From an uncultured Lachnospiraceae bacterium (GTDB taxonomy: Bacteria; Bacillota; Clostridia; Lachnospirales; Lachnospiraceae), in assembly GCA_946566685.1 (NCBI GenBank), contig CAMNXA010000006.1:14699-78698 (forward strand): a stretch of 64,000 nt of DNA, given 5' to 3'. Made by a program: the position numbers and the translations under genes. Shown one piece after another: positions 6,018 to 57,555 of the stretch. Positions within the stretch are counted from its first letter, which is position 1; every line of letters starts with the position of its first letter. A model generated the notes under the pieces. It had not been told where the DNA came from and did not search any database. It saw only the letters and a list, made by a program, of their open reading frames with translations.

Positions 6018-6027
6018 CCCCCCCCCC
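6018..6027 (-). repeat. homopolymeric C10 (G10 on the coding strand) just upstream of the permease start
   Basis: The minus strand reads GGGGGGGGGG-TAAGATGGC-ATG. The tract occupies the Shine-Dalgarno position of the gene starting at 6008. Confidence 0.9.
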
Positions 6028-38470: not shown

Positions 38471-40150
38471 CTATTTTACCACAATTCGCCCCTGCGGCAC
38501 AGCATATTCTTTTCCGATTGTTCCACCCAGATGATTGGCTATGTAATCGATCAAAACCTGATAATCCATAGTTCCCTCATCCAAGATCAGAGGATTGTCC
38601 ATAAACATCCGCTGGCCGTCTCCGCCCCGTTTGAGCAGGTAATTCTGGGAAGCAAGCGTATAAATCCTGTCAGGGTCAATGGGCGCATAACTCCCATCTT
38701 CCTGAAGTACCCTGACATCCTTTACCCGGCGCACACTCCCGCAGGATACAAACATTTCATTCTCATCCATAGCGACCGAGGACTCCACGGAAGTATCCAC
38801 CGTAAAGGTAATCCCCGACACCTGGAGGAATCCGCCGTTCTCTCCCACGGCATTTGTGCCATCGCTAAACTCCGCCTGTACTGCCCGGTTCGCCATCTCC
38901 AAAGCATCCAGTATCTCCTGTCCGCTTACCTGGGCAACGCAAAGGGTATTTCCGTAAGGATGTACGGCAAGCAGATCCCCATAGGTAATATCGCCCGCCG
39001 GCAGATTGGCCCGGATACCGCCGCCATTTACCATGGCAATATCCGCCCCGGAGACAATACGGCAGGCATCGGCACAGAAATCTCCCAGGTTAGTCTCCCG
39101 GCTTCTCACTATACGGATACCATCCTTAGAGGCAATGGACAAGTCTGCTTCACTGTGTCCTGCAACCCGCTTCATATCTTCCTCGAAACTGCCCAAAACC
39201 TCATCGATATAACATTCTGTTTCCTCGTCCTTCTCCGGATATGTAATCAGTCCCGTGGTAATGGTTCCGCCTGGGGTTATCGTAAGCTGTCCAATATAGT
39301 TTAATTCCGTTCCCGTTGAAGACAGTAATACCTCACCGCCGCTTTTATTCTTTACAACCTGACAGGGAATCACACTGTGGGAATGGCCGTCCAGCACAGC
39401 ATGCACCCCTTCCGTATGCTCGATCAGATTAATAGAACGAAACGGTGCAGAATCCTCATCCACACCCAAATGTGTCAGGAGAATGACATACTCTACCCCT
39501 TTCTCCAGACATTCATCCACCGTGGCCTGCACCTGTGTATAAAATTCTTCCCCATTATCCCCGACATAAAAATCATAGACAAATTCCCCCGCCTCATCCA
39601 TAAAATAGGTCGGCGTGGAACTGGTAATGTTCTCCGGGGTGCAGACGCCGACAAAGGCGACCTCCACATCTCCGTATCTTTCTATACGATAGGGCGAAAC
39701 TTCTTTCAGGGCGCTTTCCCCTGTACCGGTATATCGTACATTACAACACAGATACGCTGCCTCTGCTTCCTGTATAAGCCGGGAAAGCCGTTCCATGCCA
39801 TAGTCAAATTCATGATTGCCGGGCACAGCCAGATCATAGCCGATGCGATTCATCATCTGCACAGGATACTCGCCTTCTGACAAAAGGCCGATTACATCCC
39901 CCTGTATGGCATCCCCACAATCCACCAGGGTCACATAGGGTGTTTTCTCTTCCATATATTTCTGATAAGCCGCCAATCCCGCATAACCGATGTTGTCCTC
40001 CACGGCACAGTGGACGTCATTGGTATAGAGAATGACAATATCCTCCTGCTCCCGTCTGGCCGTCCCACAGCTGCATAACAATAAAAGAACTAATATTATT
40101 ACAAGCAAAACATTGATAGTACGTCTTCTGTATTTCATCTCTATCATCAT
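38471..40150 (-). CDS. secreted bifunctional metallophosphatase / 5'-nucleotidase (UshA-like) lipoprotein
   Basis: It has YTNDVHC, DCGDAIQG, VPGNHEFDYG and the lipobox LLLCSCG. The start is one of three ATGs between 40138 and 40150. Confidence 0.88.
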   Translation of the reverse strand: MMIEMKYRRRTINVLLVIILVLLLLCSCGTARREQEDIVILYTNDVHCAVEDNIGYAGLAAYQKYMEEKTPYVTLVDCGDAIQGDVIGLLSEGEYPVQMMNRIGYDLAVPGNHEFDYGMERLSRLIQEAEAAYLCCNVRYTGTGESALKEVSPYRIERYGDVEVAFVGVCTPENITSSTPTYFMDEAGEFVYDFYVGDNGEEFYTQVQATVDECLEKGVEYVILLTHLGVDEDSAPFRSINLIEHTEGVHAVLDGHSHSVIPCQVVKNKSGGEVLLSSTGTELNYIGQLTITPGGTITTGLITYPEKDEETECYIDEVLGSFEEDMKRVAGHSEADLSIASKDGIRIVRSRETNLGDFCADACRIVSGADIAMVNGGGIRANLPAGDITYGDLLAVHPYGNTLCVAQVSGQEILDALEMANRAVQAEFSDGTNAVGENGGFLQVSGITFTVDTSVESSVAMDENEMFVSCGSVRRVKDVRVLQEDGSYAPIDPDRIYTLASQNYLLKRGGDGQRMFMDNPLILDEGTMDYQVLIDYIANHLGGTIGKEYAVPQGRIVVK

Positions 40151-40173: not shown

Positions 40174-40578
40174 TTATTGCAGAAAACGAAACCTGCCCTC
40201 GGTCTCTTCCACCAGCACCGACTCCAAATCAAGTTTCTCTCGGATTTCTTCCGCCAGGCTCTCCACCTCGTCTTTTTCCACAAAAATCATCTGATAAATG
40301 AGAGCCTCATTCTCATGTACGGTTCCCGCCTCCACATACGCGCCATTAGCCGTATATTCGGTATACCCAAGTCCTCTGTCCGTGATCAGCTGCCGAATCT
40401 TCTCTCCCGCCTCCTGCGTTGAAAGAACCTGTGCACCCGTCTGTGCATTATTTAAGCCACAGTAGATTTTAAAATATTTCTCCTGCGTTTCGCCGTCCGC
40501 ATTGGTTTTGCCGCAGGCAGTGAGTGCCATCATTGCCACTGCCAAAATCATCACTGTCTTCTTTAATCTACTTTTCAT
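40174..40578 (-). CDS. small lipoprotein, unknown function
   Basis: MKSRLKKTVMILAVAMMALTACGK is a signal peptide with a lipobox. GGAGG lies upstream of the ATG at 40578. Confidence 0.6.
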   Translation of the reverse strand: MKSRLKKTVMILAVAMMALTACGKTNADGETQEKYFKIYCGLNNAQTGAQVLSTQEAGEKIRQLITDRGLGYTEYTANGAYVEAGTVHENEALIYQMIFVEKDEVESLAEEIREKLDLESVLVEETEGRFRFLQ

Positions 40579-40600
40579 TGCATCCTCCATCTTAATCTGC

Positions 40601-41287
40601 TCAATCATCCGTCATTGTAAAATACAAATACCCGTCTCCATAATAGGGCAGTTCATCAATCGTATACAGTCTGGCCGCATAATCGATCGCACTGTTCTTT
40701 TTCATCTGCTGCAAAGAATCCTTTCCCAGTTGAAACATGACACCCTCATAGGTAACGGGACAAGTCACTGCAATCGCCTTATAGACGGTACTGCCCTCAT
40801 TTCCCGACATAAACTCCACTGATATATCATAGGATTCGTCTCCGTTCTGGATTGTCACAAACCCCTCCTGGGCCGTATGTTCTCCCTCCAGCTGCTCGTT
40901 CACCGCACTGTCAAACTCAAAGCTGGTTCCCGTATATCTGTCAAAAGCACTGCACCAGAAAAGAATGCCATCACCCGTACAACCACTTGCATCAATGGCA
41001 AATTGTGCGCTCACTTTCTTAAATCCGTCTGCCACACCCTCAGTAGCCTCTGCGATGGATACCTTCACATCCGCCGTAAAGTCCCCGGTGATCTCACCGC
41101 TTGCCGAATCAAAGCCACCCATCTCCACCTGACAATCTCCCTGCGGTGTGACGGTAATTCCCTGCTTGGCACTCCATCCCTCTTCCTTTTTCTTCAAATC
41201 CTTATCATCAGTGCCGCACGCGCATAATAATACAACAGCCAGCACAACCAGCATACCCAGCTGCCACCTGTTTCTCCCTGTTATCAT
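40601..41287 (-). CDS. lipoprotein, unknown function
   Basis: ...LVVLAVVLLCACGTDD contains a lipobox. I prefer the ATG at 41287 (9 nt after AGGAG) over 41296. Confidence 0.6.
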   Translation of the reverse strand: MITGRNRWQLGMLVVLAVVLLCACGTDDKDLKKKEEGWSAKQGITVTPQGDCQVEMGGFDSASGEITGDFTADVKVSIAEATEGVADGFKKVSAQFAIDASGCTGDGILFWCSAFDRYTGTSFEFDSAVNEQLEGEHTAQEGFVTIQNGDESYDISVEFMSGNEGSTVYKAIAVTCPVTYEGVMFQLGKDSLQQMKKNSAIDYAARLYTIDELPYYGDGYLYFTMTDD

Positions 41288-41310
41288 CACACTCATCTCC
41301 TGCTATTTCC

Positions 41311-41718
41311 TCAGATACTCTTCCTGATCGTTAAAATATTCTGTCCGTCCTTATATTCATAAGCAATATCATCCATGGTCTTTTTGACCATATAGATGCC
41401 AAGGCCGCCGATTTCCCGCTCCTCCGCAGAAAGCGTAATGTCCGGGTCATCTTCTGTGAGTGGATCATAAGGAACGCCGTTATCAATAAAAGTAATCACC
41501 ACAGACAAAGGATCATTCAACACCTCCACCCGCACCGTAGCCGGACCCACTTCCGGATTATAGGCATAGTGGGCGATATTTCCAAATAACTCGTCTATGG
41601 CAATATCAATCTGCATCTGCGCCTTCATCGGGCAGTCCATCGCTTCCAGTTGCTCATTCACAAAAGCAGTGACCTCCGCTATATTTTCAACTATCGCATC
41701 GACTGTCAGTTCCTTCAT
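41311..41718 (-). CDS. RsbW/SpoIIAB-type anti-sigma factor serine kinase (HATPase_c_2)
   Basis: The N-box is DELFGNIAHYA. It also has ITFIDNGVPYDPL and the G-box EIGGLGIYMVKK. The length is 135 aa. Confidence 0.8.
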   Translation of the reverse strand: MKELTVDAIVENIAEVTAFVNEQLEAMDCPMKAQMQIDIAIDELFGNIAHYAYNPEVGPATVRVEVLNDPLSVVITFIDNGVPYDPLTEDDPDITLSAEEREIGGLGIYMVKKTMDDIAYEYKDGQNILTIRKSI

Positions 41719-41741: not shown

Positions 41742-42239
41742 TTACACTTCCAGCAGTCTGCGTAATTTCTTAAGTGCACTGCCATGGATCAACTTAGCAT
41801 AACTATAGGAAATATGCATGATATCCGCAGTCACTTTCAAGGTATGTCCGCTATAATAATGCAGAATAATCAAATCCCTCTCCCGCTTCTCAATCCGTAA
41901 AAGGGCATCCGCCAGACGTTCCAACATCTCTTCAGAAAGAACCTGTTCTTCAATTCCCTTATCCTCCGCAGTCAGTTCCGTCAACTCGCTAAACTGCTTC
42001 GAAGTACGATAATAATCTATCACCACATTGCGCGTGATCGTATAAATCCAGGTCGAGACGGACGCTTTGCCTGCATCAAAAGAAGACAGGGCCGCAAACG
42101 CTTTCACAAACACGCCGGAAACCAGATCCTCCACCATGTGAGGATCTGGTACTTTCCCGGAAATATAACGGGTCACTTTTTCCTTATAGTCCAGATAAAT
42201 CTGTTCCTGTAATTTTTGATTCTCAACTGTTTCAGACAT
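41742..42239 (-). CDS. ECF-like sigma-70 family RNA polymerase sigma factor
   Basis: The region 2 pattern is ...DLVSGVFVKAFAAL..FD.....STWIYTITRNVVIDYYR. Region 4 is RERDLIILHYYSGHTLKVTADIMHISYSYAKLIHGSALKKLR. I take the ATG at 42239; the Arg-rich upstream extension is discarded. Confidence 0.85.
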   Translation of the reverse strand: MSETVENQKLQEQIYLDYKEKVTRYISGKVPDPHMVEDLVSGVFVKAFAALSSFDAGKASVSTWIYTITRNVVIDYYRTSKQFSELTELTAEDKGIEEQVLSEEMLERLADALLRIEKRERDLIILHYYSGHTLKVTADIMHISYSYAKLIHGSALKKLRRLLEV

Positions 42240-42429
42240 GGGGATGATCCCCCGTGGCCGCACCCGGCCTGGGCGAAGCCGGCACTTCCCCTGCCGCATT
42301 GACAAATTCCAGGTCATCATCCGACAGCGGCACACAGTATCCGGATGCCGCCTGCCCGATGACCGCTGCAAGCCGCTTATTGTTCGCAAACTGTTGATAA
42401 TCAAACAACCCTCTCAATACCCTGTCCAT
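42232..42429 (-). CDS. small ORF (65 aa) with a double-glycine-leader-like motif, translationally coupled to the sigma factor gene
   Basis: MDRVLRGLFDYQQFANNKRLAAVIGQAASGYCVPLSDDDLEFVNAAG|EVPASPRPGAATGDHPHV. An AAAGG lies 6-7 nt before the ATG. Its stop overlaps the sigma ATG in ATGTCTGA. Confidence 0.4.
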   Translation of the reverse strand: MDRVLRGLFDYQQFANNKRLAAVIGQAASGYCVPLSDDDLEFVNAAGEVPASPRPGAATGDHPHV

Positions 42430-42480
42430 AGACTTACCTTTCTCACATATCCGCTGCTATGCGATCGGTGTTAACCTGTT

Positions 42481-42657
42481 TTATCGTCTTTTACCATTGG
42501 GTTCATCCCAGTTCCATCTTCCACCGCCAGTTACCTGATCCAGGGCATCGTCACTCAAAGCCTCTGTCTTAGGTGTGATGATAAGTCCTCCGTTTACATC
42601 CTTCAGGGCATCGTCCTTTACTCTGTTTTCCTGGTTCTGATTCATCTTGTCTGTCAT
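42481..42657 (-). CDS. 58-aa precursor-like peptide with two double-glycine motifs (peptide B; not in the ORF track)
   Basis: My own translation gives MTDKMNQNQENRVKDDALKDVNGG|LIITPKTEALSDDALDQVTGG|GRWNWDEPNGKRR. AGGAGG lies 8 nt upstream of the ATG. Confidence 0.55.
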   Translation of the reverse strand: MTDKMNQNQENRVKDDALKDVNGGLIITPKTEALSDDALDQVTGGGRWNWDEPNGKRR

Positions 42658-42820
42658 TGTCTTTTCCTCCTTTTTTCCATATCTTTATCTGATTCATCTT
42701 TTCCAGCGGAACTTATCCCGCTAACCACCATACTGTTACAAAATACTTGCTGCCTCTCCTGCATGCATTGTCTATGTACTTTGCGCTCTCATGCCACCAC
42801 TCACATCTTCCAGCGCCTCG

Positions 42821-42985
42821 TCATCTATCGGTTCTGCCCCCCCCCCCTGAAATATTCGGGGTTTTACCCTCTGTCTGCTCAATCCATGATCTGGTTTCGT
42901 TCTGTATCCTCATACCGCCGTTCACCTCATCCAGTTCTTCCTCTTCCAACAAAATACCCTGTACATTTTTTTCTTTATGATCCAT
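42821..42985 (-). CDS. 54-aa precursor-like peptide with a double-glycine leader (peptide A); apparently frame-split at a G11 tract
   Basis: MDHKEKNVQGILLEEEELDEVNGG|MRIQNETRSWIEQTEGKTPNISGGGGRTDR*. GGAGGTG lies 5 nt upstream of the ATG. It is the internal part of the 111-aa track ORF. Confidence 0.55.
   Translation of the reverse strand: MDHKEKNVQGILLEEEELDEVNGGMRIQNETRSWIEQTEGKTPNISGGGGRTDR
42837..42847 (-). repeat. G11 homopolymer inside peptide-A coding sequence
   Basis: I counted 11 consecutive C on the plus strand (42837-42847). Confidence 0.9.
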
Positions 42986-43070
42986 CTTTTCACCTCCGTT
43001 ATTGACTATACCGCTGCTTACACTTTGATACGAATCACTTCCGCCGCGGTCTAATAAAATCGTAAATTTA

Positions 43071-45284
43071 TTAAAATAATGTGGTTTTCCCCACATGCTG
43101 TACATCATCAAGCCGTTGTCTTGCCACCAACTCCGAGAAGTACCCACCCTTATCAATCAATTCGTCATAGGCGCCGTCCTCGATAATCTTCCCCTTGTCC
43201 AGCACAATGATCCTGTCGCACTGCCTGATGGTGGACAGGCGGTGGGCAATCACGATCCTGGTGCATTTTAACCTGTCAAGGGACTCCGAAACCGTCTTCT
43301 GCGTCAGGTTATCCAGGGCGGAAGTGGCCTCATCAAACATGAGAATCTTCGGTTTGGGGGCGATGGCGCGGGCAATCATCAGCCGCTGTTTTTGGCCGCC
43401 GGAAATGCCGCCTGCCCCCTCGGCAATCATGGTATGCATCCCCATGGGCATCCGCCTGATATCCTCCGCCATCCCCGCAAGTTCCGCCGCTTCCCAGGCC
43501 TCATCCAAGGTCAGCCAGGGCGCGGAGATGGTGATATTGGAATAAATATCTCCCAGAAACAGACTGCCGTTTTGCATCACCACACCAATCCGGCGGCGCA
43601 GGGACTTTAAGTCAATCGTGGTCAGGTCTTTGCCATCATAATAGACCGCGCCTTTCTGGGGCGTCTCAAATCCCAGCATCAGCCGCATCAGCGTGGACTT
43701 GCCGCATCCCGTTGCGCCCACGATGGCCACGTACTGGCCGGGACGGATTTTTAAGGAAAGATTGTCCAGAATCAGCGGCATATTTTCCTTGTAACGGAAG
43801 GACACATTGTTTAACTCTATCCCGCCGGAAAGTCTGGTAATCACCTGTTTGTTCTCGGCAATCTCCGGCACGTTTTCGAGAATCGGTCCGACCATTTCCA
43901 TCATGGGTCTAATCTGCGCAATGGTGAGCGCCACAGAGGACAGGGTCATAAAAGCCCCGGAGACCATGCCGTAAGCGGTATAAAAAGCATAGTAGTCCGC
44001 CACCGATATCTTCGTGCGGATGGCGGCATAATATATCACAAAAGTGCCCACCAGCGAAATGGCCGTGGAGATAACGCCGTTTATCTTGATCAGCATCGGC
44101 GGGTCATAGGCCAGCTTTGCCTGCTTCGCATAAAGATTGCCCCATCTGGCAAAGGCCCGCTTCTCCGCACCGGAGAGTTTGATCTTCTGTACCCCGGAAA
44201 TCATGGCATAGGACATACCGCCCTCCTTGGAAGCTAACTCCATCTGCCGCCTTACCAGTCTCATCTGCATCAGGGAAGTCAGCACCGTCACCAGGAACGT
44301 CACCCCGATCACCAGCAGAGCCGGCGTCACAAGAGCCGGCGCATATACAAATATCTGCGAGATATATAGCAGGGAAAAGAGGGACGTCAGGCCGGCGGAA
44401 AGCGCCACCGACACCAGCATCGTACACAGTTCCCCCACATACTGCATTCGGGAAGAAAGTTCCCCGGCGCTGTAATCCTTAAAAAAATCCGCCGGCAGAG
44501 ACATCACCCGGGACATCACCGCCGCCTGCACATGCACATCCAGCTTCGTTTCCATCCGGGCCATGACCAGTTGTTTTACCGCTGCAAAAAGTGCTGAACT
44601 GATGGCAACACAGACCATAAACACCAGGATGGACGATAACAGCCGCATACTGCCGGACGAAATCACCTCAGAGAACAAAATATGATTCAGCTTCGGCGCA
44701 AACATTCCCATCAGCGTGACCACGCATACCATCGCCAGAATCATGATAAAGTCCTTGACAGAGAAGGTCTGTAGCATATAGCGGATCAAATCCGAAAGAC
44801 CCAGCTTTTTCAGGGGAAACGGCTTATAGAAAGCAATCGCCTCCTCCTCGAACAACTCCTGGTTGTTATGATCAAACCTCTCTCTCTTCCCGCTTGCCGC
44901 ATCCAGATAGCTGTAACCGGAAATTCCGGCAGGGAGAAAAGCCGTGACGGCGCCATCGCTTTTACGCACCCCCAGCATCGCCCCGTCCGCATCCCGATAC
45001 CAGCCATCCGTCAATTTAACGGTTCTTCGCATAATGCCGTTGGGCCTTAGCAGAAATTCCAACTGCTCATTCATATCTTTGATACTGTCCGGTATCTCCC
45101 TGGATTTCACATGGTAGTATTTCAGAATCTCCTCCATGGCGTTTCTTGCCGTCTGCCTAGAATCGTTCAATGCCACAGATACACGGGATCCCATGACTGC
45201 ACCCGCAATGTTGACGAAGGCATCCTCAAGCATTTCGTTATCATTCTGTTTTCGTAAGCGGATCTGCTCGTCAAACCAGCCCAT
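43071..45284 (-). CDS. NHLM-type bacteriocin-system ABC transporter, ATP-binding/permease subunit without active peptidase (ABC2)
   Basis: It has a 6-TM domain, Walker A GATGCGKST, the signature ISGGQKQRLMIARA and FDEATSALD. The N-terminal ~160-aa domain has no CG... cysteine motif. GGGAGG lies 6 nt before the ATG. Confidence 0.85.
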   Translation of the reverse strand: MGWFDEQIRLRKQNDNEMLEDAFVNIAGAVMGSRVSVALNDSRQTARNAMEEILKYYHVKSREIPDSIKDMNEQLEFLLRPNGIMRRTVKLTDGWYRDADGAMLGVRKSDGAVTAFLPAGISGYSYLDAASGKRERFDHNNQELFEEEAIAFYKPFPLKKLGLSDLIRYMLQTFSVKDFIMILAMVCVVTLMGMFAPKLNHILFSEVISSGSMRLLSSILVFMVCVAISSALFAAVKQLVMARMETKLDVHVQAAVMSRVMSLPADFFKDYSAGELSSRMQYVGELCTMLVSVALSAGLTSLFSLLYISQIFVYAPALVTPALLVIGVTFLVTVLTSLMQMRLVRRQMELASKEGGMSYAMISGVQKIKLSGAEKRAFARWGNLYAKQAKLAYDPPMLIKINGVISTAISLVGTFVIYYAAIRTKISVADYYAFYTAYGMVSGAFMTLSSVALTIAQIRPMMEMVGPILENVPEIAENKQVITRLSGGIELNNVSFRYKENMPLILDNLSLKIRPGQYVAIVGATGCGKSTLMRLMLGFETPQKGAVYYDGKDLTTIDLKSLRRRIGVVMQNGSLFLGDIYSNITISAPWLTLDEAWEAAELAGMAEDIRRMPMGMHTMIAEGAGGISGGQKQRLMIARAIAPKPKILMFDEATSALDNLTQKTVSESLDRLKCTRIVIAHRLSTIRQCDRIIVLDKGKIIEDGAYDELIDKGGYFSELVARQRLDDVQHVGKTTLF

Positions 45285-45299
45285 AGGTTACCTCCCATA

Positions 45300-47477
45300 C
45301 TATGCACTTGCCACCAACTCCGTATACGCCCCGCCCTTGGCATACAGTTCCTCATGTGTGCCCCGTTCTATCACTTCTCCCTGCTCCAGCACAATGATCT
45401 CATCACAGTCCCTTATCGTGGAAAGGCGGTGGGCCACCACGATGCAGGTAATGCCCCTGTCCTTGATGGCCTTGACCACCTCATATTCGGTCTTGGCATC
45501 CAGTGCCGATGTAGCCTCGTCCAGGATAATGATGGTGGGATCCTGAGCCAGCACCCTGGCAATCTCCATGCGCTGCCTCTGACCACCCGAAAGATCCTTG
45601 CCGCCCTCCGTGATCTTATAGTTATAGCCGCCGTCCCTCAGCATGATATCCTCATGCAGCCTGGCATCCCTGGCCGCCATGATCATTTCAAAGTCCTCAA
45701 TCGAACTGTCCCACATCTTGATATTGTTGGCGATGGTATCTTCAAACAGGATAATGTCCTGATCCACCACCGCCAGGGATCCTGTGAAAATGCTTCTATC
45801 AATATCTTTCATCGGTTTACCGTCAAATAAAATCTCACCACTCCAGGGTTTGTACAGTCCCGATATCAGTTTGGAGAGTGTGGATTTCCCACAGCCGGAG
45901 GCGCCCACAAAGGCAACCCGGCTTCCCGTTTTCAAAGACAGGCTGAAATCCCTGATCAAAGGTTCGGCCAGTCTGGAATAACCAAAAGTCACGTTTCTCA
46001 GTTCCACGTTGCCCGACAGTTTGCCGTATTCCATGTCCTCTCCCGCTTCCTCATCATCAAATTCCACATCCACGGGATATTCCATCACATCCTCCACCCG
46101 CTCCATCTGCGTGCGCATCTCCTGCAAGGTCTGCCCCGCCGAAATCAGTGTCTGTGCCGGCGCGCTGAAAGATAAAAGGAATCCTTGAAAAGCCATGATC
46201 ATACCCACCGTAAACTGCCCCTGCATGGTAAGGTATGCACCAATGAGCAAGACCGCTATATTCGCAAAAGAGGCTGTCATCTCCGGGATTGCACCCAGAT
46301 ATTGGTTCAGACGGACAAACTTTACCTGCTGGGTATTTACACTGGCCTGATACCCCGCCCATTTTTCAAAGTATCCGTTCTCCGCGCCGCTGGCCTTAAT
46401 GGTCTCGATCATCTCGATACCGGAGGCAGTGGCCCCCGCCAGCCTGCCCGCATCACGCATCTGCACACGGGTGATATTCACCCGCTTCCTGGAGATGATA
46501 TTGGACACGAAAAGGTTGATCACGATCGAAGATAAGCTGATAAGAGCCAGTATGACACTGTAGCGAAGCATGACAATCAAATAGAACACCATCATCACCG
46601 TATTGAGTACAAGCGGCGCCAGCGTATTCACCAACTCCTGAGCCACGGAAGCGTTCATCGTCTGCCGCTGTTGGATATCTCCTGCCATCCTCTGGGCAAA
46701 AAATTCCATCGGCATACGGAGTACTTTCCACATATAGCCCGTACTGCCCACCACGGCCAGCCTGCCGTTAATCCGCAGGGAATAGACCGCTCGGATCCAT
46801 TCCACCACCAGCTGCAAGATTCCGATCCCGCCCAGCACAAGCAGAAACGGCGGCGCCCAGCCAGGATTGCGGCCCGTCAGCAGTCTGTCCAGAAATATCC
46901 GGGAAAAAACAGGATTGATAATCCCCAGCAGGGACGTGATCATAGTCGTCAAAACCACAAAGGCGATAGCGCTCCCCGCGCCTTTTAATCTCTTTTTCGC
47001 AAAGGAGAGCATACTCTTTTGTCTGCCGTCCGGTGCAAAGTCCTCTGCCGGCTCAAACATCAGACAGATGCCCGTAAAAGCCTCGTCAAAATCCTGCATG
47101 GTCACCGCATAGTTTCCTTTGGCAGGATCGTTTAAGTACGCTTTATTTTTCTGAAAACCGTTTAATACCACAAAGTGGTTGAAATTCCAATGGATGATGC
47201 AGGGAAAGGTTCCGTTCTGCTTTAGGTCTTCCGGCTCATAGCGGTACCCCTGGGCCTTAAGCCCATAACTTCTGGCCGCCCGCAGTACATTTTTGGCATT
47301 GGAACCGTCCCTGGATACGCCGCAGTCCGCACGCACCTGCTCCAGAGGAATCCATTTTCCATAATAGGCCAGAATCATGGTCAGTGAGGCGGCACCGCAC
47401 TCCAGCGCTTCCATCTGCATGACCACCGGCACCTTCGCCACGCCGTTTTTGACAGGCTTATTTATCGCCTTACCCAT
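45300..47477 (-). CDS. C39-peptidase-domain ABC transporter (double-glycine leader cleaving/export ATPase, ABC1)
   Basis: The C39 motifs are VVMQMEALECGAASLTMILAYYG and ...IIHWNFNHFVVL. It also has GASGCGKST, LSGGQRQRMEIARV and LDEATSALD. I prefer the ATG at 47477 (5 nt after GAGGTG) over 47498. Confidence 0.9.
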   Translation of the reverse strand: MGKAINKPVKNGVAKVPVVMQMEALECGAASLTMILAYYGKWIPLEQVRADCGVSRDGSNAKNVLRAARSYGLKAQGYRYEPEDLKQNGTFPCIIHWNFNHFVVLNGFQKNKAYLNDPAKGNYAVTMQDFDEAFTGICLMFEPAEDFAPDGRQKSMLSFAKKRLKGAGSAIAFVVLTTMITSLLGIINPVFSRIFLDRLLTGRNPGWAPPFLLVLGGIGILQLVVEWIRAVYSLRINGRLAVVGSTGYMWKVLRMPMEFFAQRMAGDIQQRQTMNASVAQELVNTLAPLVLNTVMMVFYLIVMLRYSVILALISLSSIVINLFVSNIISRKRVNITRVQMRDAGRLAGATASGIEMIETIKASGAENGYFEKWAGYQASVNTQQVKFVRLNQYLGAIPEMTASFANIAVLLIGAYLTMQGQFTVGMIMAFQGFLLSFSAPAQTLISAGQTLQEMRTQMERVEDVMEYPVDVEFDDEEAGEDMEYGKLSGNVELRNVTFGYSRLAEPLIRDFSLSLKTGSRVAFVGASGCGKSTLSKLISGLYKPWSGEILFDGKPMKDIDRSIFTGSLAVVDQDIILFEDTIANNIKMWDSSIEDFEMIMAARDARLHEDIMLRDGGYNYKITEGGKDLSGGQRQRMEIARVLAQDPTIIILDEATSALDAKTEYEVVKAIKDRGITCIVVAHRLSTIRDCDEIIVLEQGEVIERGTHEELYAKGGAYTELVASA

Positions 47478-47499
47478 TTCTTCACCTCGTTTTGTCATA

Positions 47500-47597: not shown

Positions 47598-48101
47598 CTA
47601 ATCATTTTCCGCAGTAGTGTTTAACAAAAACGACATCGGAGAAATACTCTCTGTTATCATGGACACCTCATAGACACCGTCAGGAAGCGTGGTCTTTGCT
47701 CTCACTTCATACACCCACTCCCCGGCCTGAAACCCGCCCAGATACAACAGATAGGCATCCGCACCCTGTGGGATTGCCACAGGCGCTGTCCCGATATCCA
47801 TAATCTGAAAGGACTGTTCTGCCACCGTAAGTTCCATCCCCGCTCCCACAGCCTTCCTCACCGCCTCGATATCGCTTTCCCTGACATAACAGGTAAACAC
47901 GCCGTCCTCACATGTCCCCGCGCTCTCAAGCCGAGTATCCAGATGCCCGAAAATGCCCCAGACGCACACGCCCACAAGCAGAATGATCACCGCCAGAAGC
48001 ACCATCCATACGCCCAGGCTTGATACCCGCACATAGTCATCCAGCTGCTCCGGTGAGGAAATCCGCTGGATACTGGATTTGCGAAATAATTGTCCGTTCA
48101 T
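47598..48101 (-). CDS. short HlyD-like secretion adaptor of NHLM-type bacteriocin systems
   Basis: The N-terminus LFRKSSIQRISSPEQLDDYVRVSS plus one TM helix is the hallmark start of this adaptor family. At 167 aa it is much shorter than canonical HlyD proteins. Confidence 0.7.
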   Translation of the reverse strand: MNGQLFRKSSIQRISSPEQLDDYVRVSSLGVWMVLLAVIILLVGVCVWGIFGHLDTRLESAGTCEDGVFTCYVRESDIEAVRKAVGAGMELTVAEQSFQIMDIGTAPVAIPQGADAYLLYLGGFQAGEWVYEVRAKTTLPDGVYEVSMITESISPMSFLLNTTAEND

Positions 48102-48123: not shown

Positions 48124-49503
48124 TTACTTCTCCGCCACGCCTACCTGGAACTTATATTTCTTCTGAAAACGGTCATGGTTAAAGGCATTGACCACATCCC
48201 AGCCGTTACAGTGCCCGGAACACATAAAGCTCTCACATCTGGACAACATGTAGAGAGCATAAAAATAGTTGACGGTGGTATCCTCCAGCGCCGCTTCATA
48301 CGCTTCCCCGCTCTTTTCCTGCTTCTCCAGGTCACTGATCAGCGCCACATCCTTAAAATCGCTGACCCGATGTCTTTCCTGCGCAATGACGCGTATCTTA
48401 CCCTGAAACTCAGCCTGCATCACATCCAGAATATCCTGATCCTCGGTAGCCAGGAAAATGGCATCATATCGATCCTCCTCCATCCACTCATGTATCATGG
48501 GCAGCATTTCGTCCACCGTAGCCATCTTGCGGGCGCCGGTCATCCTGGAGACCACATAGTCCGTTCCCCGCATGAGGATTCCCAGCATCCGTCTGTTGCC
48601 GATGACTGCCTCCTCATACTCTTTCAATTCCTGAATAAAACTGTCGCTTAAGATACTGTCATCAAAATCCGCATTGCATTTCGCCACGAAATGAGTCGGT
48701 ACCAGCGGCACCGTGTTGGTCACATAGATGGTATTGGTCTCATCGGAATCCTCACAGGCCACATCCAGGTTAAAATACCGCTCCAGCATGTCATCCTTGT
48801 ACCGGGTGCTGTCCCGTTTCAACACTGTTTTCCAGCCTAATTGCTTAAAGGCATTATTAATCCTTGTATAATGTGCCAGGATCGCACCGATTCCTGCCAC
48901 CATACCCAATCCCACTTCCACATACTTCACATCAGACAGCGGGATATCCATCAGCCACTGCCAGATAAAGACATTGTTAAATAACGGGATCAGGCTGATG
49001 GAGCGAAAATCCGCACTGTTAAATCCCAGTGAAAACTGCTGCCCGCTGCGAAGGACATTCCCTTCCGCCCTGTCGGGGAGGTCTGTGGTCACATGCAGTC
49101 TCTCATGGGGTTCCACAAACCAGTAAATCCGTTCATCAGGAATCCACACTTCTTTCTCTGTGTAATCCAGGATAATCTTCGTCAGAACCACGCTGTACTC
49201 GTTAAGATCCTCAAACACGGCGCCGTTGTACTCCTGAAATACGTCCAGATATAAAGCTTCCCGATCCGTCTCATCGTACAGGTAATACGGGGGCAGCATC
49301 CTATATCCTTTCAGCACAGCCATATTGGGCGCCTGTTCATTATTTTCCATATAAATCAGGTCATAATCCTCCCCCTTGTCGTTTCTCACATGAAATCTGT
49401 TCTCGCCCTTCAGGACTGCCCGCAGTGCGTTGTGAAATACCTGGTCATTATGCCTTAAGGTCCTGCAATTCTCATTTTTATCCGCTTCTACAATCTGTAA
49501 CAT
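48124..49503 (-). CDS. hypothetical 459-aa protein; the C-terminal half has fucosyltransferase-superfamily-like motifs (tentative)
   Basis: A clean ORF with GGGAGG upstream. The motifs LGILMRGTDY (HxRxxD-like), AIFLATEDQD and DTTVNYFYALYMLSRCESFMCSGHCNG occur in the order seen in GT11/GT23/POFUT-like enzymes. The N-terminal ~280 aa are unassigned. Confidence 0.6.
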   Translation of the reverse strand: MLQIVEADKNENCRTLRHNDQVFHNALRAVLKGENRFHVRNDKGEDYDLIYMENNEQAPNMAVLKGYRMLPPYYLYDETDREALYLDVFQEYNGAVFEDLNEYSVVLTKIILDYTEKEVWIPDERIYWFVEPHERLHVTTDLPDRAEGNVLRSGQQFSLGFNSADFRSISLIPLFNNVFIWQWLMDIPLSDVKYVEVGLGMVAGIGAILAHYTRINNAFKQLGWKTVLKRDSTRYKDDMLERYFNLDVACEDSDETNTIYVTNTVPLVPTHFVAKCNADFDDSILSDSFIQELKEYEEAVIGNRRMLGILMRGTDYVVSRMTGARKMATVDEMLPMIHEWMEEDRYDAIFLATEDQDILDVMQAEFQGKIRVIAQERHRVSDFKDVALISDLEKQEKSGEAYEAALEDTTVNYFYALYMLSRCESFMCSGHCNGWDVVNAFNHDRFQKKYKFQVGVAEK

Positions 49504-49580: not shown

Positions 49581-52500
49581 TTACAGCCAGACTACCAACT
49601 GATTTTTCCCTTCTTCATATGTATAACTGCTGTCCACAAGCACAGACTTCACCAACCGGATAGAGAGTTCCTCCCCCTCCTCCAGCGGATGATACTGCCT
49701 GCCGCCCCATACAAACCGCATGGCCAGCCTGCCGTCCGCCTCATAATATTCCGTGGTAATCTCCAGAGCGTCCTCCCCATCCCGGTTCGGCACAATATTG
49801 AGCGCACAGATTTCCTCGAATGCCCGGCGCAGATTCTCTACCTGTCTGCGGCTCAAAAGATGCTTTTCGCCAAACTGCTGCAGGGACTCGCTCATGGCAA
49901 TAAAGTCATAGTCCGGCGAAGTAATCCGGAACTGCAATACTTTTAGCCGTTTAACAAAAGCCCTGGTTTTCTCTTTCACGGGATTATCAAAAATCTCTTC
50001 CGGCGTCCCTTCCTCATATATCTCCCCCTGATCCATATAGAAAATCCGGGTACTCACATCCCTGGCAAACTTCATCTCATGGGTGACGATCATCATCGTG
50101 AGTCCTTTGGCCGCAAGCTGCCTGATGACCGCCAGTACCTCGCCCACCATGGTGGGATCCAGAGCGCTGGTGGGCTCATCAAACAGCACGATCTCCGGCC
50201 GCATGGCCAGGGTCCTGGCAATGGCCACACGCTGTTTTTGGCCGCCGGACAGCTCATCCGGATAGGAGAGCGCCCGTTCTGCCATACCTACGGTCTTTAG
50301 CAGATACATGCCATAGGCAAAGGCCTCCTGTTTCATCTCACCTTTTAACTGCGTGGGCGCCAGCATCACATTTTCAATCACAGTCAAATGCGGGAACAGA
50401 TTAAAACTCTGAAACACCATTCCCATCCGCTTGCGAAGGCTGCACAAATCCACATCCTTCTTCCCGGTGTCTTCCCCAAACACGGTAATCTTCCCGCCTG
50501 TAGGCGTTTCCAGACGATTCAGGCAGCGCAGGAAGGTAGATTTACCGGTTCCGGACGGCCCGATGATGGTAATGACCTCCCCGCTGTGAACCACCGTATT
50601 CACATCCTTTAACGGCGACACATCGGCATACTCCTTATGTAAATGCTCCACATGGATCAGATCCCTGGCCTCTCCTGACAATGCCTGTTCCTTCGTCTCT
50701 TCATAACAGGCGCTGGTATCTACGCCCTGGGGATATCTGCGCGGCCCGCGCTTCACATCCAGCTTCCACTCCACCCTGCCGATGGCAAAGGCCGCCACCG
50801 CCGAGATGGCAAAGTAAATCGCCGCCGTAGCAATCAGCGGGAAAAACGCCTCGTAAGTACGACTTCTGATAATGTCCCCCGCCTTGGTCAGATCCTCAAT
50901 GGAAATATAACCCACGATGGAGGTCAGCTTTAACATGGAGACAAATTCTCCCCGGTAAATGGGCAGCACCTGCCGCACCGCCTGGGGCATGATAATCTGC
51001 ATGAAGGTTTTACCCCTGCCAAATCCCAGGGCCTGGGCCGCCTCCCACTGGCCGGCATCTATGGTATGGATACCAGTATTTAAGATTCCCGCCACCGCCA
51101 CTGCAAAGATCAGGGAAAAGGAAATGATACCCACCGTCACCGGCGCAATCTTCACCGAAGCAAACACCACAAAATAAATGATCATCAACACTACAAGACT
51201 GGGGATACCCTCCATCAGATGACAGAGTCCCTTTGCCAGCATGGCAAGGGGTTTATTACGGCATCTTAACCATAGGCACAGCAAAAATCCCAGAACTGTT
51301 CCGATCATACCCGCCAGAACGGCAATCTCAAGTGTCACCAGCAGGCCGCTCCAGATCAGCTTCCAGCGGTCTTCCCGGATAAAGGTTTTTTCAAAGCTGT
51401 CCGCCAGTCCATCAAAAAAGCCGGCCTCTTCCACACAGTCTCCCTCATCCGCCACCGCCATGACGGTTTCCACATAAGTATAGGGGATGGAAAAAGCCAT
51501 CACTTCCCGTTTCTCCGGTGTTTCAAACAGGTTGGACATGATATAGTCCACCTTGCCGGACACACAGGCCGGCGTGATCCCGTCCCAGTCGTAAGTCTCC
51601 ACCGCCAGTTCTGCATTGCACCAGCCGGCAAAACGTCTCATCAATTCCAGGTCATACCCTGTCAGTTCTGTCCCTTCATAGAAAGAATAAGGTTCCACCA
51701 GTCCTGTGGTTCCCACAGTGATGGTATAGTCCGGTTCCTCGGCCTCTGCGACCTCCGGCATGGTATAATCGTGTTCTACCAGCCAGCGTCTGCGCATATC
51801 TTCCAGTGTCCCATTTTCTGACATTTCTGTCAGAAATGTATTGATCTTATCCTCCGCATCCGGAATCCCCGTCACCGGGCTGATGGCCACTGCCACATTG
51901 CCCGGCTCTCCGACAGTGGCATTCCCATAGACACGCAGTCCCTCATTACCGCTGGCAAGATAGCTTTCAAGAGTCGTCTTATCTACGGCAAAGGCATCCG
52001 CTTTCCGGCTTGTCACCGCCAAAAACCCACCTATGGCATCGTCCACAATAATAAACTTCGCCCGCGGATAGACTGCCTTTGCGGCAGTTTCTGTGGTCGT
52101 ACCGGTCTCTACGGCAATCACGGCAGACTCTCTGTTCAGATCAAAAGTCTCCGCTCCGTCCACATTTTGCGTCCGGCACAGAAAGACCGTGCCGCCCGAA
52201 TAATAGGATTCACAAAAATCCACACTCTCGGCACGTTCTTGCGTAACAATGATACAGCAGGCCGCAATATCCGCTTTATTCTGCTGGATAAAAGACACCA
52301 GGGAGGCAAACTTTGTCTCGATCAGTTCCACTCCCATATCCAGTCTGTCCGCGATCATCAGTACCAGTTCTGTCTCAAGTCCTGCCGGCTTTCCATCATT
52401 GCCAATATAGAGCATGGGCATATTGGTGCCGTCAAAGGCAAAGCGCAGCACGCCGCCGGGACGCTCGGAAAGATCATACAAAGACCAGTCAATCTTCATG

Positions 52501-52994
52501 ATCTCCTCGTCTCCGCTGAGCCATTTCCCGGCCAAGGCCTCAATGGTTCCATCCGCTTTCAACTCCCGGATGACTGCTGACACCTCATCCGTCAAAGGCC
52601 CATCCTTTTTCAGGATCATGCTGTAATCATCCGCAGAAATAATCTCCGGAAATACCGCAAACTCCCCCGGTCTCTGGGCTGATGCCATCTGCGCCACAGG
52701 GCCGTCCAAGGCCACCGCCTCCACATCGCCCTTTTTCAGGGCCTCCAATTGCGTAGTCAGATCGTCATAATGGTTGTAGCTTAAATCATCAAATTTTTCA
52801 TCCAATACCTGGTCATACAAAGATCCCGTCAGCGTGGCAATGGTAGTGCCCTCAAAGTCTTTCAGCGTCCGGTAGACTGCATCTGTCTGTTCCTTATTGC
52901 CGCATCCCGTTACTTCGGCCAGCGCCGTACATATTATTAAAATGAAAAGTGCCGCCTTATATCTCGCCATTTGTGCTTTCATTCCTTTTATCAT
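49581..52994 (-). CDS. single-chain amino-acid-type ABC transporter: lipoprotein signal + substrate-binding domains + permease + ATPase + RsbW-like tail
   Basis: The lipobox is VTGCGN. SBP_bac_3-like segments come next, then the permease (…[33 protein letters not shown]…). The ATPase has [24 protein letters not shown] and [12 protein letters not shown] 118-aa C-terminal extension follows. An ATGA overlap links it to the upstream STAS gene. Confidence 0.85.
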
Positions 52995-53287
52995 TCCACC
53001 GTCAGGATATCCGAAAATCCTGTGACTTCAAACACTTCCATCACTGTCTCACAGACATTCCGGATGACCATACTGCCCTGTTTGTTCATGATCTTCTGTG
53101 CCGAGAGCAGGACTCGTAACCCCGCAGATGAGACATACTCAAGATTCGCAAAATCAAGAGCCAGTTCCGTCATGCCGTCAAGGGATTCCTTGAGCGCCTT
53201 TTCCAGTTCCGGGGCCGTCATGGTGTCCAGCCTGCCTTCCACTCCCACTGTCAATGTTGTCCCTGTTACATTTTTGTTGATTGTCAT
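52991..53287 (-). CDS. STAS-domain anti-sigma-factor antagonist (SpoIIAA/RsbV-like)
   Basis: ...[22 protein letters not shown]...[20 protein letters not shown]... contains the conserved phosphorylatable Ser context. The ATG at 53287 follows AAAGGAG. Confidence 0.88.
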
Positions 53288-53371
53288 AATGCTTCTCCTT
53301 TTCATTGTTATTGTGAAATTACTTCTGATGCTTTCACAGTCCGCACTTTCCTTCCGAAAACCATCACCGCG

Positions 53372-54787: not shown

Positions 54788-54961
54788 TCTCCTTAAGCGT
54801 AAGACGATATCCCTATTCTATATCATTTTATGCATAAAAAAAGCGTCCGGCAAAAATGTTACCTGACGTTTATTTTCGCAGTTAAATTTTGAAATTTACA
54901 CAAATACTTTTATGCTATACTTATGTTTAAATCAATCTTCAGGAAATTAAGAGGTGAAAAG

Positions 54962-55654
54962 ATGTACAGGATACTAATGGTGGATGACGATCCCATGATA
55001 TTAAAGAACAATCAGACTTTTTTCTGTGCGATGGGATATGATGTGATCTGTGCTGATACCGCTGCCGCGGCGGAAGAGATCATTCTCTCCAATGCTCTGG
55101 ATTGTATTATTCTGGACGTAGACCTTCCGGACATGGATGGCTTTGCGCTGTGTGAAAAGATACGTTTAAAGACCGGTCTCCCCATCGTCTTTCTCTCCGG
55201 CTATACCGAAGAAGAAAGCCGCATCCGCGGACTCTCCGTGGGCGGCGATGACTATGTATGCAAACCTTACAGTCTGAAAGAACTGGAACTGCGCGTACAG
55301 GCCCGCATCCGGGCAGGCAGGGCGGCCGAACCGCCTAAAACACTTAACTTTGGCGCTTTTTCCATCAGCCCTTCCTCTTGCAGTGCAAGCTATGACTCCC
55401 GCTCCGTGGACTTTTCTTCTTATGAATTTGATGTGCTGTATTTCCTGGCCAGACATCCCGGCAAAATCTTTACCCCGGAGCAGATCTATGATTCCGTGTG
55501 GAAGGCGCCTATCATCAAAGGTCAGAAATCCCTGCAAGTCATTATGGGACGTATCCGCAGAAAACTCTATGAACTATGCCCTGACCACGACTACATCCAG
55601 ACCAAACGCTATAAGGGATATCTCTTTGTCCCTGATGAAAAGAGTGACGTATAG
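54962..55654 (+). CDS. OmpR-family response regulator
   Basis: The receiver is ILMVDDDP...CIILDVDLPDMDG. The winged helix is ...YEFDVLYFLARHPGKIFTPEQIY...GYLF. GAGGTG precedes the ATG at 54962. Confidence 0.92.
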   Translation: MYRILMVDDDPMILKNNQTFFCAMGYDVICADTAAAAEEIILSNALDCIILDVDLPDMDGFALCEKIRLKTGLPIVFLSGYTEEESRIRGLSVGGDDYVCKPYSLKELELRVQARIRAGRAAEPPKTLNFGAFSISPSSCSASYDSRSVDFSSYEFDVLYFLARHPGKIFTPEQIYDSVWKAPIIKGQKSLQVIMGRIRRKLYELCPDHDYIQTKRYKGYLFVPDEKSDV

Positions 55655-57482: not shown

Positions 57483-57555
57483 ACAACTGTTCCTCTCACC
57501 AATCAGATGGCTATCTGTTATACCATCGCCTCAATGCCCCGAAATGGAGATTACC

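Follow-up and report, generated by a model that had tools for sequence, protein, structure and literature searches.

The window analysed here is a 64-kb stretch of DNA from an uncultured gut Lachnospiraceae bacterium, and all coordinates given below are window positions. The element of interest is a 754-bp segment of its minus strand (42232-42985) which holds three small genes, pepA, pepB and open reading frame (ORF) C, and which lies between the genes for a C39-type ABC exporter (ABC1 and ABC2) and a gene for a sigma factor of the extracytoplasmic function (ECF) type (Table 1). As argued below, pepA and pepB probably encode unmodified double-glycine-leader peptides that are cargo of the adjacent NHLM-type exporter, each with a tandemly duplicated leader, and ORF C is, judged by its sequence, a sigma-coupled small protein and not a third cargo of like kind. 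A sequence-only reading of the segment had reported five double-glycine leader-type motifs in it, all of which were found there on the minus strand. They were scored with a 12-column matrix built from 26 double-glycine leaders of distant loci, with none from the present family, and applied to all 84,705 stop-free 12-mers in the six frames of the window. The five motifs took ranks 1 to 5 (scores from 34.6 down to 15.0), the sixth-ranked 12-mer reaching 9.7. By direct reading the four motifs of pepA and pepB (ranks 1, 2, 3 and 5) also follow the leader rule of hydrophobic residues at -12, -7 and -4 with a GG end, the known requirements being these hydrophobic residues and an end in GG, GA or GS (PMC6363468). 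The statement that all five motifs fit the consensus thus stands for these four and fails for that of ORF C, which ends in Ala-Ala-Gly and not in Gly-Gly. In what follows L-numbers denote related contigs or loci that were fetched and P-numbers homologous peptide sequences, both being labels of this analysis.

Table 1. Features of the pepA-pepB-ORF C locus and its surroundings; model scores are given with their cut-offs
Feature	Position	Strand	Remarks
pepA	42772-42985	minus	start at 42985; Shine-Dalgarno GGAGGTG 6 nt before ATG
pepA leader motif 1, LEEEELDEVNGG	42914-42949	minus	matrix score 33.8, rank 2
G run in pepA	42837-42847	minus	encodes GGG(G); 11 G in the window
pepA leader motif 2, IDDEALEDVSGG	42793-42828	minus	matrix score 27.9, rank 3; followed by six-residue tail MRAQST
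pepB	42481-42657	minus	58-aa precursor; Shine-Dalgarno AGGAGG
pepB leader motif 1, VKDDALKDVNGG	42586-42621	minus	matrix score 15.0, rank 5
pepB leader motif 2, LSDDALDQVTGG	42523-42558	minus	matrix score 34.6, rank 1; followed by variable 13-aa tail
ORF C	42232-42429	minus	65 aa; conserved N-terminal part (LFDYQQF...), leader-like helix LSDDDLEFVNAAG, variable tail EVPASPRPGAATGDHPHV
ORF C motif, LSDDDLEFVNAA(G)	42292-42327	minus	matrix score 15.4, rank 4
ECF-type sigma factor	41742-42239	minus	165 aa; regions 2 and 4; TIGR02937 89.5 (42.9)
Candidate ECF-type promoter	43025-43054	minus	TTAGAC, 16 nt, CGTATCAA; 40 nt upstream of pepA
Terminator-like hairpin at ABC2 end	43079-43096	minus	sequence conserved in L013
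ABC2, peptidase-less permease/ATPase subunit	43071-45284	minus	TIGR03797 745.7 (709.4)
ABC1, C39 peptidase/permease/ATPase subunit	45300-47498	minus	TIGR03796 961.6 (853.3)
u167, single-pass membrane accessory protein	47598-48101	minus	167 aa; one transmembrane segment
RsbW/SpoIIAB-like kinase	41311-41718	minus	HATPase_c_2
Predicted lipoproteins u231 and u144	40174-41296	minus	signal peptide, then Cys
5'-Nucleotidase	38471-40150	minus	
u459	48124-49503	minus	459 aa
Fused importer, amino-acid type	49581-52994	minus	1137 aa; two solute-binding domains, permease, ATPase
STAS-domain protein, anti-anti-sigma type	52991-53305	minus	
Membrane PP2C phosphatase, SpoIIE family	53372-54787	minus	about six N-terminal transmembrane segments

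Comparison with relatives shows pepA, pepB and ORF C to be real genes that evolve as coding sequence. Homologues of all three are present on many contigs, and against diverged relatives the substitutions are piled at third codon positions (positions 1/2/3: 16/9/38 for pepA compared with L011, 11/6/31 for pepB and 12/10/30 for ORF C), indicating translated genes under purifying selection. That public protein sources hold no name or accession for any of the three might suggest untranslated chance ORFs of an intergenic spacer, but this is hardly credible for ORFs that are kept across many contigs with such a third-position bias, that have Shine-Dalgarno sites and that contain the five best-ranked of 84,705 12-mers, and it is already contradicted by the comparative data. 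The sequence-only reading was therefore right to treat them as coding genes.

Intact pepA, as found in L001-L003 and P0048, encodes 70 residues arranged in two leader units (MDHKEKNVQGILLEEEELDEVNGG / MRIQNETRSWIEQTEGKTPNISGGGAEPIDDEALEDVSGG / MRAQST). In the window a +1 frameshift gives a 54-residue product with an out-of-frame tail, motif 2 being readable in the frame reached after the G run. The 1-nt frame change that had been noted in the window is explained by the length of this run, which counts 11 G in the window, 10 in both L001 and L002, and 9 in L038, where a third frame results: the reading frame of leader 2 and MRAQST is intact only with 10 G, and the 10-G contigs, which are near-identical to the window, have an uninterrupted pepA with both motifs. 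With 11 G the window pepA is out of frame and only unit 1 would be made. NCBI/ENA data contain the truncated 54-residue product (P0055), encoded on a contig of 120,943 bp, and the 9-G form is represented by P0057. The 11-G run is either a homopolymer assembly error or a true length polymorphism or phase-variable switch that disables unit 2. Against the leader hidden Markov model (HMM) TIGR01847 (cut-off 15.7) the repaired pepA scores 18.8 and the frameshifted window product 12.5, that is above and below the cut-off respectively. Another long homopolymer of the window (6018-6027) reads C10 on the plus and G10 on the minus strand and precedes the start of an ABC permease gene (5352-6008, minus) by 10 nt. 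Assignment of pepA as a graspetide target was rejected, as GRASP_targ_2 gave 22.9 with a cut-off of 32 and no ATP-grasp gene is present.

Among relatives the second motif of pepA is the constant one. It is present in all 13 tabulated variants, it differs between L002 and L011 by 8 synonymous and 2 non-synonymous codons, and the residues invariant in a six-sequence alignment are DEAL-E-VSGG and R-Q-ST. The tail that follows is mostly MRAQST, LRVQST or MRTQST, with departures such as MRVQAI, LRVMST, MMWNHNETGGKRR and, in P0054, a pepB-like core. Motif 1 is variable: L005, P0056 and P0060 lack it, P0049 and P0050 have Pro at its position -7, and its end is SG in P0053 and HGA in P0058. The two motifs lie 2 to 47 residues apart. 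When the refuting condition of the sequence-only reading, a lack of conservation of the second motif in homologues, is applied, the upstream motif turns out to be the weak one and the downstream motif of pepA is invariant.

The pepB precursor reads MTDKMNQNQENR VKDDALKDVNGG LIITPKTEA LSDDALDQVTGG GRWNWDEPNGKRR and scores 17.8 with TIGR01847, again above the cut-off. Both motifs are kept in all five homologous pepB clusters (69-88% full-length identity), and the GG of motif 1 is present in six of six variants (the window plus the five clusters) as well as in most pepA variants. Mean pairwise identity is 0.64 in the N-terminus, 0.83 in motif 1, 0.79 in the nine residues between the motifs, 0.93 in motif 2 and 0.53 in the tail, and the synonymous/non-synonymous codon differences are 10/30 in the N-terminus, 17/14 in motif 1, 25/12 in the middle and 24/6 in motif 2. 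These counts indicate that the region from motif 1 through motif 2 is constrained throughout, and on this measure the constraint is intermediate in motif 1 and strongest in motif 2, while the tail diversifies (variants GRWNWDEPNGKRR, ARWNWDDSGKKKR and GRMTAFTNQPNSKRR). In a pepB paralogue of L013 (10223-10405) motif 1 no longer has its GG. It was considered whether pepB, with its W-N-W core, could be a XyeA-type triceptide, and this was rejected (E=0.0013, below the cut-off, with the match on the leader motif and not on the core; radical-SAM absent).

Behind its two GG sites pepA has stretches that are homologous to each other (MRIQNET with MRAQST, or LRMQNE with LRVQST), and their first residue is paired, M with M or L with L, in 8 of 10 two-motif variants, indicating that pepA is a tandem duplication of a leader-plus-core unit, whose copies have possibly been homogenised by gene conversion to judge from this pairing. 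When the comparison with repeated cores, as in multi-core peptides that are made by the ribosome and modified after translation (RiPPs), is made for each gene, MRIQNET and MRAQST of pepA are alike and LIITPKTEA and GRWNWDEPNGKRR of pepB are unrelated. In P0054 pepA units are joined to a pepB-like core, and the junction of this evident pepA/pepB recombinant shows that leader-core units recombine. The locus from which P0054 comes (L039-L041) is decaying: a single fused peptide is left, ORF C has been deleted along with region 2 of sigma, and two of the three contigs have a split ABC1. Across the fetched loci there are 12 distinct peptides with at least two motif matches, all of the close family, and 55 distinct peptides with a single motif. 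The scan of related genomes for the two-motif layout that the sequence-only reading had proposed found it kept in homologues of both pepA and pepB, and with this distribution the N-proximal motif is best described as a clade-specific duplicate in this Lachnospiraceae clade.

It had been stated that classical double-glycine precursors have a single leader, but this is not absolute. The Escherichia coli microcin PDI precursor McpM has leaders at residues 1-18 and 19-36 which are cut in sequence at G17/G18 and G35/A36, with export by a C39-ABC system (PMC5311971). It resembles pepA and pepB in having two consecutive double-glycine-type leaders per precursor, and the L013 pepA (2 residues between the motifs) and pepB (9 residues) have nearly the same layout. 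McpM differs in being a class II microcin of Gram-negative origin whose mature domain is large and contains Cys, whereas the pepA and pepB tails have 6 and 13 residues and no Cys, and pepA has up to 28 residues between its motifs which resemble a second core. The blpM-blpN hybrid of Streptococcus pneumoniae has a second leader, for which its authors suggest two peptides from one frame (PMC4860687). Here too two leader-core units are fused in one frame, P0054 being a like event, but the hybrid, an allele of a two-peptide bacteriocin, is rare (1.1% of genomes), whereas the layout of pepA and pepB is common clade-wide and their cores are tiny. Multi-core RiPPs of the cyanobactin or microviridin type differ from the present cluster in that no modifying enzyme was found in it: as the sequence-only reading had stated for the first three of these classes, there is no LanB/C/M, radical-SAM or YcaO gene, and also no ATP-grasp gene, between about 32 and 63 kb of the window.

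Both subunits of the exporter score above the cut-offs of their models (Table 1), and as an adjacent pair of peptidase-bearing and peptidase-less ABC subunits they constitute an NHLM/NHLP system. Homologues of ABC1 begin at Met8 (position 47477). Its C39 domain is complete (Pfam Peptidase_C39, 121 bits, profile positions 2-132 of 133; Gln28, Cys34, His108 and Asp124 present), the whole protein aligns end to end with PCAT1 (4ry2) and ComA (8hf4), and for the N-terminus the closest C39 domain is that of LahT150 (6mpz, 242 bits). The C39-ABC gene that the sequence-only reading had placed directly upstream of the peptides is thus intact as stated, but ABC2 intervenes and ABC1 lies one gene further. 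For the conserved N-domain of ABC2 (residues 1-165) Pfam and PDB searches found no relative; it was considered as a degenerate C39-like domain that might bind the second leader, but the single-sequence AlphaFold2 model was too poor to be of use (predicted local distance difference test, pLDDT, 48). The u167 gene is always upstream of ABC1 in the loci compared, and its product matches the HlyD-like model TIGR03794 over profile positions 1-50 only, with 39.4 against a cut-off of 156.2. None of pepA, pepB and ORF C matches the long NHLP (TIGR03793) or Nif11 (TIGR03798) leader models; a true Nif11 leader is present in cargo of the distant locus L030 (36.1, cut-off 32.3). Peptide genes, ORF C, the sigma gene, both ABC genes and u167 occur together in Lachnospiraceae, in metagenome-assembled genomes (MAGs) of other Clostridia and in one Erysipelotrichaceae MAG. 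This synteny, the TIGR01847 scores and an exporter above its cut-offs bear out the proposal that pepA and pepB encode export substrates of the neighbouring C39-ABC system.

The sigma factor consists of regions 2 and 4 only and is translationally coupled to its small partner ORF C, as in pairs of an ECF sigma and an anti-sigma factor: the stop codon of ORF C overlaps the sigma start in ATGTCTGA, and an overlap of 4 or 8 nt is found in the window and at least eight other loci. A 220-residue TTG-start ORF (41742-42404) was rejected as a longer form of sigma, since homologues start at MSETVENQ (165 residues) and what precedes this start is ORF C read in a different frame. The candidate ECF-type promoter directly follows the hairpin at the ABC2 end. 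Its octamer, CGTAT[CA]AA, was found 18 times in 16 loci. A 16-nt spacer separates it from a -35 that varies with lineage and ends in AC or CC, with an AAAAWTTTT stretch upstream, and each of the 18 sites immediately precedes the first cargo gene, ORF C or u167 (the background frequency is 0.054 per kb per strand). The element has the AAC/CGT character of ECF promoters such as those of Bacillus sigma-W, -X and -M. The positionally conserved promoter supports a link between sigma and the peptides and suggests a self-activating pepA-pepB-ORF C-sigma operon, so that the functional connection claimed from the adjacency of the sigma gene has gained support from the promoter and from the coupling of ORF C to sigma. 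A partner-switching set of the RsbU/RsbV/RsbW type, namely PP2C phosphatase, STAS protein and HATPase_c_2 kinase, is also present in the window locus.

ORF C had been counted as the third member of the peptide set, which we do not uphold, as it has one motif, this motif has an AAG end and the protein belongs to a separate, widespread sigma-coupled family. Its motif scores 15.4 in the register that puts Ala-Ala in place of Gly-Gly at -2/-1 and -8.6 when the register is shifted so that Ala-Gly occupies the GG positions. The family pattern is L-x-x-LFDYQRF-x-x-N-x-x-L...I-x-ET, then LSDDDL-x-x-V-x-AAG, then a variable and often charged tail. An exhaustive profile search gave 1,308 representative clusters at E<=1e-3, and 664 when the threshold was E<=1e-10; among 116 parsed members the motif ends in AAG or AG in 115 and in GG in one. 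ORF C was found in 21 loci (L017-L037) of species-representative genomes, all metagenome-derived or uncultured assemblies, from Lachnospiraceae, Oscillospiraceae, Acutalibacteraceae, Erysipelotrichaceae and others. An ECF-type sigma gene adjoins it in every one of these loci, u167, ABC1 and ABC2 are usually linked and PP2C, STAS or kinase genes often so, and the cargo motifs there end in GG, occasionally GS or GA. No Pfam or NCBIfam match was obtained and no leader HMM matched at E<=1; there is no recognisable anti-sigma domain (Pfam, NCBIfam) and no membrane segment. An AlphaFold2 model has three helices (pLDDT 65), with which Foldseek found nothing meaningful in the PDB. A Nif11/NHLP leader identity was tried and rejected, profile-profile comparison with the Nif11 leaders of distant loci giving 29% probability in another register and the NCBIfam leader HMMs being silent; the resemblance by eye of LKALFDYQRFEKNERL to NHLP 'motif 1' (PMC2887384) is a lead only. 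In L022 (10001-10330) ORF C runs in frame into the first ~45 residues of a truncated sigma, which may be a natural fusion or a decay product.

The account that we favour, and that we hold to be reasonably probable when operon, cargo, C-proximal site, signalling and ORF C are judged jointly as one explanation, is as follows. The 754-bp stretch would be the 5' end of a minus-strand operon comprising pepA, pepB, ORF C, sigma, the RsbW-like kinase and the two lipoproteins, transcribed from the ECF-type promoter just after the exporter genes; the locus sigma presumably reads this promoter, making the operon self-activating. The products of pepA and pepB, as predicted from their sequences and setting, would be unmodified double-glycine-leader cargo of the adjacent NHLM-type exporter, each with a tandemly duplicated leader. 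The cytoplasmic C39 domain would dock on the amphipathic leader helix through the hydrophobic residues at -12, -7 and -4 and cut after the C-proximal GG, and the pump would then expel the tail, MRAQST in the case of pepA and GRWNWDEPNGKRR in that of pepB. The C-proximal leader copy would be the principal processing site, the N-proximal copy having been born from duplication of a leader-plus-core unit. It is plausible that the exported peptides act as extracellular signals, and they might feed back on sigma through the membrane PP2C/STAS/kinase module or through ORF C, which we picture as a regulatory partner of sigma whose leader-like helix may communicate with the exporter.

Several observations weigh against this account. 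The promoter pattern is not rare on its own, with 2 matches in the window against 2.6 in shuffles, so that the promoter evidence counts only through its conserved position. The 11-G frameshift in the window pepA may be an assembly error. We know of no double-glycine-exported peptide as short as the six-residue pepA cargo. The partner-switching set is incomplete in some relatives, L009 being without kinase and STAS genes, and no ComD/LytTR-type receptor pair was found, the nearby two-component regulator being of the OmpR type with no LytTR domain detected. Finally, distant loci of the same system have bacteriocin-like cargo, which means that the signalling role may not hold.

How many cuts each precursor receives is the part of this account for which two alternatives deserve discussion. 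If both GG sites were cut, as the sequence-only reading had it, three pieces would come from each precursor (leader, middle peptide and short C-terminal peptide), and all would be secreted signals. The upstream motifs of the window keep every C39-recognition residue, that is the hydrophobics at -12, -7 and -4 and the GG, with motif 1 of pepA even scoring above its motif 2, so that a second cut which frees the middle piece appears possible from these residues, as with the successively cut tandem leaders of microcin PDI; the homologous, co-varying residues after the two GG sites of pepA and the purifying selection on the pepB middle (25 synonymous and 12 non-synonymous differences) also speak for it. 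However, such three-piece cutting is not conserved, since in the relatives named above the upstream motif of pepA is lost, has Pro at -7 or ends in SG or HGA, and since that of the L013 pepB paralogue is disabled. At -7 and at -4 polar residues are not accepted by LahT150 (PMC6363468), and several of the pepA motif 1 variants are therefore probably not substrates at this site. Loss in relatives also implies that the N-proximal copy is not essential, and a pepA middle piece would range from 2 to 47 residues and would bear leader 2 as a C-terminal extension. Moreover, the C39 domain is cytoplasmic, as shown for PCAT1 (PMC6959990), so that export of a second product would require cutting to begin at the C-proximal site; were motif 1 cut first, the remainder would be exported whole and pass beyond further cutting. 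Cutting at both sites of each precursor is on these grounds rather doubtful. Doubtful to the same degree is the opposite proposal, that the upstream motif is a functionless relic of unequal recombination between neighbouring paralogues, which fused two units and left an upstream part that merely lengthens the leader. Loci do contain two to four peptide genes in tandem whose leader motifs are nearly identical, P0054 is an evident recombinant, the blpM-blpN hybrid is a fusion of like kind and motif 1 has decayed in several lineages. But a relic would not be expected to be more constrained than the N-terminus, as pepB motif 1 (17/14) and middle (25/12) are when compared with 10/30, or to keep its GG in all six pepB variants and most pepA variants, and the way in which M and L co-vary behind the two GG sites points to continuing constraint or gene conversion. 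We retain the C-proximal copy as the principal site, with a cut at the other as a possible addition.

What the exported products do, and whether ORF C is among them, can be weighed in the same way. We rank signalling ahead of antimicrobial action as the likelier role, since the predicted products have 6 and 13 residues and are hydrophilic, Cys-free and unmodified, since MRAQST is conserved and the pepB core variable, and since the peptides share an operon with sigma in a locus that encodes a membrane sensor phosphatase. That pepA and pepB are antimicrobial, in the manner of class II bacteriocins, with the sigma and partner-switching genes merely regulating production, seems unlikely to us, although the exporter family is the NHLP/Nif11 bacteriocin export system (PMC2887384), amphipathic or Cys-rich Nif11-leader arrays occur in distant loci that share the exporter, ORF C and sigma, and the two lipoproteins could be immunity proteins. 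Besides the size and character of the predicted mature peptides and the lack of a modifying enzyme nearby, it is opposed by the conservation of MRAQST across lineages, where it does not diversify, and by L005, which keeps the peptides without the lipoproteins. The preference for signals over bacteriocins in the sequence-only reading is thus shared here for the short hydrophilic products, but it is one of inference and is tempered by the bacteriocin-like Nif11-leader peptides of the distant loci. For ORF C, the role of a third exported precursor, a pheromone with EVPASPRPGAATGDHPHV as the signal cut off at an unusual Ala-Ala/Ala-Gly site, is the less likely one when set beside that of sigma partner, and in itself improbable. 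A conserved leader-like part with a variable tail does resemble precursors of the ComC type, and the hydrophobics at -12, -7 and -4 are kept with a score that ranks fourth. Yet AAG or AG in 115 of 116 members stands against GG, occasionally GS or GA, in every cargo motif of the same loci, known leaders end in GG, GA or GS (PMC6363468), the tails are mostly charged and of low complexity, the strongest conservation is in N-terminal helices that would remain in the cytoplasm, and the gene always adjoins sigma, often overlapping by 4 or 8 nt. Even more speculative is the extension of our account in which ORF C is a leader mimic without cargo that wires sigma to the exporter, so that sigma activity would report exporter occupancy, somewhat as FlgM export frees sigma-28 or as pro-sigma factors are processed. 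Its N-terminal helices would hold or modulate the co-translated ECF sigma, its helix would be captured, cut or sequestered by the C39 domain or the ABC2 N-domain, being a poor or slow C39 substrate because of its AAG end, and the doubled GG leaders of pepA and pepB would compete for the same docking sites. If true, this would be a new and widespread regulatory principle in gut Clostridia, covering some 1,300 sequence clusters.

Among described systems the nearest to the locus as a whole is the two-subunit NHLP/Nif11 export system (TIGR03796, TIGR03797, TIGR03794) defined by Haft et al. in 2010 (PMC2887384). The likeness lies in ABC1 and ABC2, which exceed the equivalog cut-offs, in the true Nif11-leader cargo of distant loci and, with respect to LahT/LahA of Lachnospiraceae C6A11, in the C39 domain of ABC1, which is closest to LahT150. 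The window locus differs in that pepA and pepB have a short doubled leader instead of an NHLP or Nif11 domain, in that the HlyD-like partner is reduced to a 167-residue membrane protein with 50 positions of TIGR03794, and in that there is no LanM or cyclodehydratase. In literature searches ORF C, sigma and the partner-switching genes were not found described within the NHLP/Nif11 system, and nothing came up on the module as such. With ComC/CSP and BlpC the peptides share the unmodified short double-glycine type and, on the account given here, export and cutting by a C39-ABC pump and control of an alternative sigma or of bacteriocin genes, and the pepB core varies between strains in the way of pherotypes; but the products would be much shorter, and in place of an HPK10-type kinase and LytTR regulator there are an ECF-type sigma, a membrane PP2C, a STAS protein and an RsbW-like kinase. 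In actinomycete lantibiotic clusters (MibX/MibW, PspX/PspW) a self-activating ECF sigma drives the peptide genes and a small partner is co-transcribed with it. ORF C differs from these partners in having a leader-like helix and neither a recognisable anti-sigma domain nor a membrane segment, and may sense the exporter rather than the product.

Double-glycine peptides with C39-ABC pumps are a main route for bacteriocins and peptide pheromones in Gram-positive bacteria, and within this route tandem leaders had been reported only as isolated cases, whereas here they are kept by a Lachnospiraceae clade in two paralogous genes. The clade offers a natural series of motif 1 states (intact, Pro at -7, SG, HGA, loss of GG and complete absence) that bears on site choice by C39 domains, on two exported products from one precursor and on leader-core recombination, and the predicted unmodified hexapeptide and 13-mer would be unusually small for C39-ABC export. 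The tandem-leader layout has precedents, and the more novel element is the module of ORF C, sigma and exporter. In this undescribed conserved combination of gut and rumen Clostridia an NHLM exporter goes together with partner-switching proteins, a leader-like small protein of the AAG type and an ECF sigma whose promoter is conserved, and it could explain the regulation of many Nif11-leader peptide clusters.

The remaining genes of the neighbourhood vary between loci. The u231 and u144 lipoprotein genes lie downstream in the same operon and are present in some related loci and absent from others. No relative of u459 was found in Pfam, NCBIfam or PDB; it is present in the window and in loci of the L009 type and absent from those of the L005 and L013 types that keep the peptides, and it is the only remaining candidate for a modifying enzyme of the locus. 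The 1137-residue importer is inside the locus in the window and in L005, not in other relatives. An OmpR-type response regulator gene (54923-55654, plus) is divergent from the PP2C gene, with a histidine kinase gene further on (57544-59553, plus), and in L009 and L010 the PP2C gene likewise has this response regulator next to it. In L013-L017 (e.g. L013 4635-7421 and 10415-11932) the locus exists in a variant with three extra genes, namely one for a protein of ~930 residues between ABC1 and ABC2, one for a third peptide between pepB and ORF C and one for a 505-residue DHO_dh plus 4Fe-4S oxidoreductase, which might act in peptide modification. In L020 (5092-8430) and L030 (10102-12423) Nif11-leader peptides come in arrays of six to eight paralogues, the cores being Cys-rich in the former (GCHKKDGRL...) and short and amphipathic in the latter (GIVDTIKKWVGGLFGR and others).

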